DNA of 64,000 bases from Candidatus Methylomirabilales bacterium (GTDB lineage: Bacteria; Methylomirabilota; Methylomirabilia; Methylomirabilales; CSP1-5), in NCBI GenBank assembly GCA_046758505.1, contig JBHIAH010000001.1, positions 83,898-147,897 of the forward strand, given 5' to 3'. The notes under the pieces are model-generated. The model was given only the letters and a program-made list of their open reading frames with translations, made no database searches and was not told the DNA's origin. The position numbers and the translations under genes were made by a program. Within the stretch, counting starts at the first letter, position 1. Every line of letters begins with the position of its first letter. Of this stretch, positions 36,900-38,338 are shown piece by piece.

Positions 36900-37799
36900 C
36901 TAGGGGGTGCCGGTGGATCCTCGCTGGACCAGGACCACGCCCGTTACCACCAGGCCACCACCCATCACCTGCGGCCAATCCAGCGCTTCCCCGAGGAAGA
37001 ATAAACCCGCGCCCGCGGCCACCACCGGCTCCATCGTGCTCATGATGCTGACCTGCGTGGCGGGGAGGTAGGTAAGCCCGAAGGTGTACAACGCAAAGGG
37101 AAGCACGGTGCCACCCGCAGCAATGAGGAAGAAGATCCCCCACAGGCGAAGGGAATACCCTTCCGAGACGAGGAGCCACGGAGGGGTCAACGCCCACCAG
37201 AACAGGGTGGCAAACGCATACGCATACACCAGGAGCGTCCAGGAGGGAATCCGCGCCACGGCCCGCTTCGTCAACAGCGTGTACGCCGCAAAGGCGCACG
37301 CCGAAAGAAGCCCGCTGATCAGGCCGGGAAGATTCAACTGGAACGAAGTCGAATCATATCCCTTCACCATCAGAAAGCAGCCGCCGACGGCGAGGGCCAA
37401 GGCGAGCACAGTCATCCACGTCAGTCGCTCTCCCAAGAAGAAAACCGAGGCCAGCGCAACCAGGATCGGAGCCATGTACTGGAGGAGGATGGCCGTGGCC
37501 ACCGTGGTCAGGCTGATCGTGTAATAGTAGGTGAAGTTCGCCATAGCCAGTCCGGCCACCCCCAACAGGGCGGCCACGGGTACCTCTTTCAGGGGCAGAT
37601 ACAGCTGTCGCTGGTCGCAGACGAGGACCCCCACAATCAGGACAAAGAGGGCGAGGGTCGAGCGAATGGCGGTGAGAGACAGCGGACCGACTTCCCCGGC
37701 GGTGAAGAGATACCGGGCCAGTGTGCCCATGAGCCCCCAGGCCGTCGCCGCGCCGAGGACGAACAGCGAACCTTTCACACGGCCTTTCCATGCGGTCAT
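36900..37799 (-). CDS. EamA/DMT-family transporter
   Basis: Ten hydrophobic segments in a duplicated EamA-like layout. Its start overlaps the upstream stop (ATGA). Confidence 0.8.
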   Translation of the reverse strand: MTAWKGRVKGSLFVLGAATAWGLMGTLARYLFTAGEVGPLSLTAIRSTLALFVLIVGVLVCDQRQLYLPLKEVPVAALLGVAGLAMANFTYYYTISLTTVATAILLQYMAPILVALASVFFLGERLTWMTVLALALAVGGCFLMVKGYDSTSFQLNLPGLISGLLSACAFAAYTLLTKRAVARIPSWTLLVYAYAFATLFWWALTPPWLLVSEGYSLRLWGIFFLIAAGGTVLPFALYTFGLTYLPATQVSIMSTMEPVVAAGAGLFFLGEALDWPQVMGGGLVVTGVVLVQRGSTGTP

Positions 37800-38338
37800 G
37801 GGCCTTTTTTGAGGAGTTCCTCCAGGACCGCCGTCAGACTCTCCAACTTCATGCGTCCCCGCGCGATGGCGGCCACGGTTCCGTCCCGGGCAAGGAGAAA
37901 TGTGGTCGGCGTCCCCTGAATACCATACAGCCGGGCGATCCGGTCCCCCTGATCATACCCGACGGCGTAGGAAATCCCTCGCTCTTGCACGAACTTCCGA
38001 GACTGCTCTTCCTTATCCCAGATATTGACGCCGAGGAAGTTTACCCCTCGGTCCTTGAACATCTCGTACGCCTTGATCAGCACGGGAGACTCCCGCTGAC
38101 AGTGGGGTCACCACGAGGCCCAGAAGTTCAGCAACAGCACCTTTCCTCGAAAGTCTGCGAGGTGAACTTGCTCCCCCGAAAAGAGGGTCAGGCCAAAATC
38201 CGGCGCTGCGCTCCCCACGGCCACCGGGGCGACAGCGGGGTCGGCCAGACTCACCGGAACCTCCCCCCAGAGGAGGCCCACCGCAACCAGGAGCCCGAGG
38301 GTCATGCGCCCTGCTCTACCGCCTTTGGCGTGTTTCAT
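37796..38338 (-). CDS. TlpA/ResA-like thioredoxin-fold protein with in-frame TGA at the redox motif (candidate selenoprotein, U-x-x-C)
   Basis: ORF-track pieces 38108..38488 and 37796..38083 share one frame. Read-through gives ...KVLLLNFWASW-[TGA 38110..38108]-PHCQRESPVLIKAYEMF..., the WCxxC position. Start Met is at 38338 with RBS GGAAGGAGA and a signal/TM segment. A stem-loop lies just downstream of the TGA. Confidence 0.65.
38075..38101 (-). promoter_or_regulatory. Candidate bacterial SECIS stem-loop
   Basis: mRNA reads UGA-CCCCACU-[GU CAGC GGG AGUCU CCC (GU) GCUG AU]. About 9 bp including wobbles, a GU-containing apical loop, starting 7 nt after the UGA. Confidence 0.45.

Follow-up and report, generated by a model that had tools for sequence, protein, structure and literature searches.

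A probable selenocysteine codon in a TlpA/ResA-like thiol-disulfide oxidoreductase gene of a Candidatus Methylomirabilales bacterium

The 64-kb stretch of DNA analysed here (the window), part of a metagenome-assembled genome (MAG) of Candidatus Methylomirabilales (NC10), carries on its minus strand a functional gene, denoted tlpU-type, whose internal UGA very probably encodes selenocysteine (Sec) in the active site of a thiol-disulfide oxidoreductase that is presumably exported, as judged from sequence comparisons. The original prediction, which was of a selenoprotein with a TlpA/ResA-like thioredoxin fold and with UGA where CxxC has its first Cys, is borne out by the presence of TGA in all 16 orthologues (16/16), by purifying selection and by a frozen hairpin. 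Recognising the gene would restore a complete periplasmic redox enzyme in relatives of nitrite-dependent methanotrophs, from what otherwise appear as fragments of 76 and 95 aa.

Reading frame, conservation and selection

Translation of positions 38338-37796 on the minus strand showed a single internal stop, the TGA at 38110-38108 (codon 77), which sits in the motif FWASW-TGA-PHC, the surrounding frame reading GKVLLLNFWASW, the stop and then PHCQRESPVLIKAYEMF. The two fragments sharing one frame and split by a single TGA, from which the original prediction had started, were therefore seen again, and the same holds for two expression signals that it had described, namely a good ribosome-binding site (AAGGAG at 38350-38345, 6 nt from the ATG) and an ATGA coupling to the EamA gene, in which the stop TGA at 37798-37796 overlaps the start ATG at 37799-37797 (Table 1). 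The selenoprotein gene and eamA likewise abut or overlap in orthologues. TGA is the stop of 20 of the 32 confident genes in the window, the selenoprotein gene included, and genome-wide reassignment of TGA is ruled out, this being the main stop codon.

Table 1. Positions in the window of the tlpU-type gene, its proposed functional elements and the genes downstream of it
Feature	Position	Strand	Details
tlpU-type CDS, TlpA/ResA-like selenoprotein (proposed)	37796..38338	-	180 codons; Sec codon 77; own stop TGA 37798-37796
Shine-Dalgarno AAGGAG	38345..38350	-	6 nt 5' of ATG; direct sequence reading
Putative Sec-type signal peptide, codons 1-32	38243..38338	-	MKHAKGGRAGRMTLGLLVAVGLLWGEVPVSLA then DP; assigned by inspection
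In-frame UGA, codon 77, proposed selenocysteine	38108..38110	-	First position of U-P-H-C
Codon 80 TGT, putative resolving Cys of U-P-H-C	38099..38101	-	Invariant in alignment
Conserved putative SECIS core GCGGGA-GUC-UCCCGU	38082..38096	-	6 bp, GUC loop, 11 nt after UGA; RNAalifold consensus
Extended 10-bp stem with GU bulge (stem of the original prediction)	38076..38100	-	Window only; minimum-energy fold -11.2 kcal/mol
Codon 144 Pro of G-T-P-T-T-F, cis-proline loop	37907..37909	-	Aligns with the proline of P-L-P-T-T-F in B. subtilis ResA
ATGA stop/start overlap with downstream EamA/DMT transporter gene	37796..37799	-	
EamA/DMT transporter gene, operon gene 2	36900..37799	-	Pfam EamA 1.2e-43; NCBI MFQ5846152.1
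UppS, polyprenyl (Z-isoprenyl) diphosphate synthase, operon gene 3	36071..36856	-	Pfam Prenyltransf 2.6e-76; NCBI MFQ5846151.1

The alignment column that holds the TGA is occupied by Cys in 17 of 17 aligned homologues, in the form FWASWCxxC. The stop thus falls exactly at the nucleophilic Cys of W-C-x-x-C, as had been claimed, and the homologue alignment proposed as a check places Cys at the UGA position throughout. The orthologues, one locus (L082) plus 15 from metagenomes, share 58-82% identity with the window protein in the part that follows the TGA, and all 16 of them that cover the site keep TGA at the position of codon 77, with no other stop and no frameshift. The residues beside the TGA do vary among them, giving W-U-PHC, S-U-PHC, G-U-PGC, W-U-PYC and A-U-PAC. 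Relatives carrying the same TGA together with further disabling mutations, which would point to a pseudogene, were not found among the 16.

Both halves of the gene are under purifying selection. In comparisons to the window (dS 0.5-1.4), dN/dS was 0.11-0.41 upstream of the TGA, over 36 codons, and 0.16-0.38 downstream of it, while four pairs of orthologues compared with one another gave downstream dN/dS values of up to 0.57, one upstream value being left uncomputed because synonymous sites were saturated. The open frame, together with low dN/dS on both sides of the TGA, indicates that the gene is not a pseudogene.

Public protein sets represent the Sec clade solely by fragments of 76 aa and 94-95 aa, and such a fragmentary record is what a selenoprotein overlooked in gene calling usually leaves behind. 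All full-length proteins in a library of 1.8 billion sequences are less than 50% identical to the Sec clade, and the matches listed in a contig search with the full protein, dominated by the pattern NFWASWCP, were all Cys homologues of at most 48% identity, the source genome and its close relatives being absent from them. The clade is confined to one group of Methylomirabilales. As for the window itself, the accession MFQ5846153 may be the selenoprotein gene as annotated by PGAP, because its number sits between those of the DMT transporter and an aminotransferase.

The hairpin after the UGA and the decoding of the codon

At this site in the window, the minimum-energy fold is a stem of 10 bp that has a GU bulge of 2 nt, is capped by a GUC loop and starts 7 nt past the UGA. 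A stem-loop of about 9 bp at this distance had been described in the original prediction and is indeed found in this fold, but just its upper 6 bp are conserved: the lower pairs of the extended stem fail to form in 4-10 of the 12 orthologue sequences, and the longer stem is therefore ruled out as a conserved feature. In the RNAalifold consensus, by contrast, the hairpin pairs G15-U29 and all its cells are paired in 12 of 12 sequences. Codons +4 to +8 (CAG CGG GAG TCT CCC) display zero synonymous change in 16 sequences, and they form the sole run of more than two codons with this property, a run of such length arising in 227 of 100000 shuffles (p about 0.002). The core is invariant across orthologues, and no compensatory covariation was found in the hairpin.

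The bacterial SECIS expected at this place agrees with what is observed, namely a nucleotide-frozen hairpin that fits the bSECIS model. This model (PMC13188914, Fig. 2) asks for a loop of 3-9 nt whose first two positions include G, an upper stem of 4-16 bp, a distance of 16-37 nt from UGA to loop and a minimum free energy of -7.5 kcal/mol or lower, and the core hairpin lies within all four limits, having a 3-nt GUC loop, a 6-bp stem, a UGA-to-loop distance of 17 nt and an energy of -7.5 kcal/mol. This last value, with z = -3.2 for the core by itself, barely reaches the threshold, the extended form having -11.2 kcal/mol. Folded together with more of its surroundings, the site has an unexceptional energy (z = +0.63 for 61 nt and -0.64 for 121 nt). 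A search of Rfam around the site, at a permissive E-value, matched no SECIS family and gave chance hits only, and the core sequence GGGAGTCTCCC matches elsewhere in the window no more than expected by chance. Like the core hairpin, the SECIS of E. coli fdhF is a coding-region hairpin that a spacer of 11 nt separates from the UGA and that has a small apical loop containing G-U, GGUC in fdhF and GUC here, the loop starting 18 nt after the UGA in the former and 17 nt in the latter. Unlike it, the hairpin described here has another stem sequence, a conserved core without the bulged U and no match to the Rfam model, and is putative as to SelB binding.

The Sec machinery was also looked for. Searches with tblastn, using E. 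coli SelA, SelB and SelD, and with ARAGORN for tRNA-Sec detected none of these genes in the 64-kb window plus about 1.5 Mb of loci, a null that is uninformative because most of these loci either cover the same syntenic region or come from unrelated genomes. In the window, ARAGORN and Rfam identified tRNA-Lys and tRNA-Glu as the only tRNAs, tRNA-Sec being absent. Methylomirabilota are reported to be rich in selenoproteins, with Sec-type hydrogenases reported in the phylum, and a MAG of this phylum is described as having 63 predicted selenoproteins (Deng et al. 2026).

Conservation of the TGA, the hairpin and the selection pattern would be accounted for equally well if SelB/SECIS read-through inserted Cys by means of tRNA-ReC (SelC*), the product then being an ordinary C-P-H-C protein. 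Such tRNAs do decode SECIS-linked UGA as Cys and are present in some selenoprotein-encoding MAGs (PMC13582414). In the same source, however, once the UXXU class is set aside, about 2% of Sec-type genomes have tRNA-ReC, and none is listed for Methylomirabilota. No tRNA-ReC was found in the window, and under Cys insertion the TGA would have been kept in 17 sequences (the window and 16 orthologues) without any obvious benefit relative to TGC or TGT. Decoding as Cys hence appears highly improbable.

A slightly smaller probability is given to the TGA acting as a real stop, either in a pseudogene or at the end of a 76-residue N-terminal fragment, perhaps accompanied by a separately started C-terminal fragment of 95 residues. 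Automatic gene callers split the locus into precisely these 76-aa and 95-aa ORFs, the latter with a GTG start, and TGA is the stop that this genome uses most. Nonetheless, this GTG has no preceding Shine-Dalgarno sequence and lies immediately 3' of the conserved hairpin, inside the extended stem that is specific to the window; termination would cut one compact thioredoxin domain exactly at its catalytic Cys; and on either side of the TGA the frame remains open and selection purifying, at a synonymous divergence close to saturation, with secondary disabling mutations absent in the 16 orthologues. That the TGA merely reflects an error of sequencing or assembly, or else a nonsense mutation of one strain, might be suspected for a window taken from a metagenome-assembled genome, but it is refuted, to the point of having next to no probability, by the identical allele in three separate runs as assembled in Logan (SRR29324611, SRR29324602 and SRR29324603) and by TGA at the same codon in the 16 orthologues, which are divergent and come from other samples. 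Insertion of Sec at codon 77 is the reading followed below.

Predicted protein and operon

The translated product matched the Pfam families AhpC-TSA (4.7e-30, 104.5 bits, cut-off 26), Redoxin (1.9e-26, 93.1 bits, cut-off 26.6) and Thioredoxin_8 (1.6e-17, 64 bits, cut-off 27), and phmmer aligned it to ResA at 2e-26. The AlphaFold model showed pLDDT values of at least 97 (means of 10-residue blocks) over most of residues 41-180, its best PDB matches being ResA structures (TM 0.89-0.94, rmsd 1.0-1.3 A), which supports a ResA/TlpA-type thioredoxin fold. Residue 77 immediately precedes helix 79-94 in this model. The pLDDT is below 50 for the segment resembling a signal peptide, where inspection reveals a basic n-region, a 13-residue hydrophobic core and an S-L-A (A-x-A-like) site, and the N-termini of the orthologues present the same signal-like layout.

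On this basis, the tlpU-eamA-uppS mRNA would be translated through the UGA at codon 77, with the GCGGGA-GUC-UCCCGU hairpin, 11 nt downstream, presumably serving as bacterial SECIS and recruiting SelB-GTP-Sec-tRNA(Sec) for the insertion of selenocysteine. The 180-residue product would be directed by its N-terminal signal peptide to the periplasm, and its mature part of ~150 residues has, by model and homology, the ResA/TlpA-type thioredoxin fold. Sec77, at the N-terminus of helix 1, would act as the attacking nucleophile of the U-P-H-C centre and Cys80 would resolve the mixed selenenylsulfide, the protein probably working as an extracytoplasmic thiol-disulfide oxidoreductase.

The redox partner of well-studied relatives is a CcdA/DsbD-type membrane protein. 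No gene of this type was detected anywhere in the 64-kb window, nor were cytochrome c maturation genes found near the selenoprotein gene. When open frames joined by a TGA, with coding-like GC3 on both sides, were sought as signs of other selenoprotein genes in the window, the tlpU-type gene was the sole one to pass. It heads the eamA-uppS operon in one clade only, more distant NC10 relatives being without a tlpA gene ahead of eamA-uppS.

In terms of the selenoprotein richness reported for Methylomirabilota, the window and its 16 orthologues add one well-supported case. The frozen mini-hairpin, with its E. coli-like 11-nt spacing, constitutes a clean candidate for studies of SelB-SECIS recognition in the phylum, and the shift from C-x-P-C to U-P-x-C amounts to a small natural experiment on dipeptide retuning when Sec replaces Cys. 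The current understanding of selenoproteins is left unchanged.

Relation to ResA and to catalogued selenoproteins

ResA of Bacillus subtilis and B. anthracis is an extracytoplasmic thiol-disulfide oxidoreductase that takes part in cytochrome c maturation. Bacillus ResA (PDB 1st9, 4nmu and the CPHC variant 3c71) is the best match in both sequence and structure, sharing with the window protein an active site that starts helix 1, a cis-Pro loop and a putative N-terminal export or anchor segment. The two are, however, ~30% identical, and the window protein has Sec in place of Cys and P-H in place of E-P in the motif. Scored against the model for ResA proper (NCBIfam NF002854), it reached 120.3 bits, below the cut-off of 170. 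Among Cys homologues the active-site dipeptide follows CxPC in 16 of 17, and this C-x-P-C arrangement, typical of the TlpA/ResA family, is not found in the Sec clade, which shows U-P-H/G/Y/A-C, that is, U-P-x-C with PH, PG, PY or PA instead of an x-P dipeptide.

The ResA-like WAxxUGC selenoprotein of NCBIfam NF041054 is likewise TlpA/ResA-like, with Sec after W-A-x-x. Membership of the window protein is nonetheless ruled out by a score of 46.3 bits (cut-off 300) and by its motif, which reads WASW-U-PHC (UxxC) rather than UGC, the model moreover having 354 positions against 180 residues.

An exported selenoprotein of TlpA-like type had been regarded in the original prediction as unusual, and this was overstated, given that both UxxC and UGC kinds are catalogued and that Methylomirabilota are reported to be selenoprotein-rich. 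The UxxC 'thiol-disulfide isomerase-like' (TlpA-like, cd02966) selenoproteins were described by Zhang, Fomenko & Gladyshev in 2005 (PMC1088965); related catalogued UxxC entries are the 'Redoxin family protein' (PF08534) and the 'Prx-like thiol:disulfide oxidoreductase' (PF00578) (PMC13188914), and 'UGC-containing TlpA' selenoproteins are listed as well (PMC13188914, PMC1088965, PMC2398784). Catalogued UxxC families resemble the Sec clade in their TlpA/redoxin thioredoxin fold, Sec as first residue of UxxC, widespread Cys homologues and a UGA within the frame that has a coding-region SECIS behind it, a likeness set, for the representatives MGB1650493.1, HEU0032618.1 and WP_010940744.1, by the descriptors TlpA-like domain and UxxC.

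It seems unlikely that the clade forms a distinct, uncatalogued periplasmic subfamily, in which a ResA scaffold with a DsbA/glutaredoxin-type U-P-x-C centre heads an eamA-uppS operon. Were this so, the protein might be a selenol-based oxidase, isomerase or peroxidase rather than a generic reductase, possibly with a dedicated role in an envelope process or a polyprenyl-linked one. Selenoproteins of the type described here have been known since 2005, and the window gene is a real but unsurprising further example, mildly new in its U-P-x-C centre where Cys relatives have C-x-P-C and in its clade-specific position ahead of eamA-uppS.

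An in-frame TGA conserved across tlpU orthologues

Translation of tlpU yields a single frame of 180 codons whose sole internal stop is the TGA of codon 77 (...DFRGKVLLLNFWASW-TGA-PHCQRESPVLIKAYEMF...), bearing out the initial view of two ORF fragments that share a frame and are separated by this codon alone. The good ribosome-binding site and the translational coupling to the EamA gene anticipated in the original prediction were also found (see table), the two genes 3' of tlpU encoding an EamA/DMT transporter and then the polyprenyl diphosphate synthase UppS. A near-consensus sigma-70 promoter (11/12) in the divergent intergenic region faces the aminotransferase/serA genes; for the tlpU operon, on the minus strand, a search gave no comparable match. 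In public sets, tlpU appears solely as Logan gene calls for 76-aa and 95-aa fragments. Neighbouring proteins of the window correspond by exact-sequence match to NCBI accessions MFQ5846140-156, and since MFQ5846153 is numbered between the transporter and aminotransferase accessions, NCBI may already annotate tlpU under that number.

Coordinates of tlpU and of other features in the window
Feature	Position	Strand
tlpU frame	38338-37796	-
In-frame TGA	38110-38108	-
Shine-Dalgarno AAGGAG, 6 nt 5' of the tlpU ATG		-
ATGA overlap of the tlpU TGA stop and the next gene's ATG	37799-37796	-
Core hairpin GCGGGA-GUC-UCCCGU	38096-38082	
Promoter TTGACA-16-TATAGT	38430-38457	+
Aas-like fusion (829 aa)	174-2663	+
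ORF without Pfam match at 1e-5	6902-8026	+
Neutral/alkaline ceramidase (1e-172)	16796-18841	+
ORF without Pfam match at 1e-5 (745 aa)	18890-21127	-
ORF without Pfam match at 1e-5	23492-24301	+
Zn-dependent alcohol dehydrogenase	56444-57790	+
Three-gene group	59126-62393	+
PAP2 phosphatase	62647-63522	-

With Cys replacing the stop, TlpU matches AhpC-TSA (4.7e-30), Redoxin (1.9e-26) and Thioredoxin_8 (1.6e-17), its closest full-length relatives showing only 39-48% identity. HMMER, run in full against 1.84 billion representatives, returned 111,875 relatives, with no full-length protein above ~47% identity and, as the only close entries, the 76-aa fragment of TlpU itself and a 94-aa C-terminal fragment (75% identity). 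The alignment suggested along with the original prediction places the TGA at the first Cys of CxxC as claimed, this column being Cys in 17/17 sampled homologues, as FWASWCxxC. Orthologues were instead recovered by DNA-level searches, namely from another Methylomirabilales MAG (GCA_975253645.1) and 16 metagenome loci (L084-L099), and all 16 that span the site carry TGA at the same codon. Motifs in this Sec clade are W-U-PHC, S-U-PHC, G-U-PGC, W-U-PYC and A-U-PAC; the residue preceding Sec thus appears as W, S, G or A, while W is invariant in Cys homologues.

Several explanations other than recoding were considered. An assembly artefact was ruled out, since three runs (SRR29324611, SRR29324602 and SRR29324603) each gave an assembly with the identical TGA allele, and reassignment of TGA was rejected because this codon terminates 20/32 confident window genes, tlpU included. 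Relatives with the same TGA plus disabling mutations, named beforehand as the mark of a pseudogene, were not encountered, the frames of all 16 orthologues being otherwise uninterrupted. Nei-Gojobori dN/dS values relative to the window are 0.11-0.41 for 36 codons 5' of the TGA and 0.16-0.38 for ~100 codons 3' of it, at synonymous divergences of 0.5-1.4; in four orthologue-orthologue pairs the downstream ratio rises up to 0.57, and one upstream value is undefined because synonymous sites are saturated. Frame maintenance and low dN/dS beyond the TGA therefore indicate that the downstream part was translated in-frame throughout the history of the clade, which excludes a pseudogene.

A minor alternative is that Cys, rather than Sec, is placed at the tlpU UGA by tRNA-ReC, which is able to insert Cys at SECIS-linked UGA codons (PMC13582414). 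Neither the window nor ~1.5 Mb of fetched loci yielded tRNA-Sec, selA, selB or selD. Sec-type group 4 hydrogenases are reported for Methylomirabilota (PMC13582414), and a 2026 review cites a MAG of this phylum with 63 predicted selenoprotein genes; support for Sec machinery in the tlpU host is of literature origin and at phylum level only. Altogether, the tlpU UGA is very probably recoded to Sec.

A short conserved hairpin downstream of the UGA

The stem-loop originally proposed 7 nt after the UGA is present in the minimum-energy fold of the window (10-bp stem, GU bulge and GUC loop), although with an energy ordinary in context (z = +0.63 for 61 nt, -0.64 for 121 nt), and only its 6-bp upper part is conserved. 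When 60 nt from the UGA were aligned for 12 distinct sequences, RNAalifold retained just the hairpin G15-U29, paired in 12/12 with a G-U to G-C replacement as sole change, while lower pairs are broken in orthologues (C16-G30 in 5/12, C13-G33 in 4/12 and position 12-34 in 10/12). Covariation is absent because the core never varies otherwise, and the case for the element comes from conservation. Codons +4 to +8 (CAG CGG GAG TCT CCC; degeneracy 2, 6, 2, 6, 4) show 0 synonymous differences among 16 unique sequences, whereas flanking codons vary freely; this is the only invariant run longer than two codons, and a run of five arose in 227/100,000 shuffles.

The bacterial SECIS model describes a 3-9 nt loop with G in its first two positions, a 4-16 bp upper stem, 16-37 nt from UGA to loop and an MFE <= -7.5 kcal/mol (PMC13188914), and tlpU agrees with it on every point, displaying a GUC loop, 6 bp, 17 nt and -7.5 kcal/mol for the core alone (z = -3.2), just at the threshold, or -11.2 in the extended form. 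No Rfam family matches the hairpin. Its layout is shared with E. coli fdhF (MG1655 sequence), where the spacer likewise measures 11 nt and a GGUC loop begins 18 nt past the UGA. Spacing of 11 nt is critical in E. coli.

Genomic neighbourhood

In orthologue contigs long enough, serA and a class-V aminotransferase gene remain divergent from tlpU, eamA and uppS, in that order. EamA, UppS, aminotransferase and SerA share 80-92% identity with the window versus 59-82% for TlpU (L082-L099), so TlpU evolves faster. In three contigs of more distant NC10 relatives (L132, L133 and L134; EamA 56-65% identical) the aminotransferase gene adjoins eamA with no tlpA-like gene between, and none of the fetched Cys homologues shows synteny with the locus; tlpU at eamA-uppS is therefore an addition specific to the clade, or was lost elsewhere. 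Its position is clade-specific and the operon somewhat fluid. In L098, the Sec-tlpA gene is directly followed by uppS, without eamA. In L082 (GCA_975253645.1), three ORFs at 6215-8421 are inserted between the aminotransferase gene and an intact Sec-tlpA gene: a 178-aa ORF without Pfam matches, an IS-like gene with faint DDE-transposase matches and an 85-aa ORF. CcdA/DsbD, cytochrome c maturation and sel genes were not found within the window.

Elsewhere in the window, three back-to-back genes encode an NAD-dependent epimerase/dehydratase, a class I/II aminotransferase (Aminotran_1_2, 2.2e-62) and a 367-aa GNAT acyltransferase, near the PAP2 phosphatase and alcohol dehydrogenase genes. Since these three are similar to the bacterial ceramide pathway CerR/Spt/bCerS, the Methylomirabilales MAG may carry a sphingolipid cluster here; a ceramidase gene lies apart. 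The Aas-like fusion, with AMP-binding (acyl-activating), phosphopantetheine-binding and acyltransferase domains, strengthens the lipid-metabolism flavour of the window. The 745-aa ORF without Pfam match could represent a genuine but unknown gene, or else a shadow frame due to high GC.

TlpU among known thioredoxin-fold proteins and selenoproteins

By inspection, the N-terminus of TlpU (MKHAKGGRAGRMTLGLLVAVGLLWGEVPVSLA/DP) has a putative type I signal peptide layout, orthologues being alike. Its AlphaFold model shows pLDDT of at least 97 (10-residue block means) across most of residues 41-180, and its top PDB matches are ResA structures (TM 0.89-0.94, rmsd 1.0-1.3 A). Residue 77 directly precedes helix 79-94, the same position as the nucleophilic Cys of thioredoxin-fold enzymes, and P144 aligns with the ResA cis-proline. 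Among NCBIfam models the ResA subfamily is nearest, yet at 120 bits versus a cut-off of 170, while the WAxxUGC selenoprotein model is far below its own (46 versus 300). C-x-P-C is found in 16/17 Cys relatives versus U-P-x-C in the Sec clade; P-H is the dipeptide of DsbA, and by sequence the best PDB match is 3c71, a ResA variant engineered to carry CPHC.

Neither the U-P-x-C motif, nor the clade-restricted place in the operon, nor the frozen mini-SECIS was found described in the literature. An exported TlpA-like selenoprotein, originally regarded as unusual, nevertheless has related families already catalogued: a UxxC thiol-disulfide isomerase-like selenoprotein (cd02966) from the Sargasso Sea in 2005 (PMC1088965), a Prx-like thiol:disulfide oxidoreductase (PF00578) and a Redoxin family selenoprotein (PF08534) (PMC13188914), as well as thiol:disulfide interchange protein and UGC-containing TlpA-family proteins. 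Thus, tlpU is very probably a genuine selenoprotein gene, though of a known type and from a phylum whose richness in selenoproteins had been reported before.
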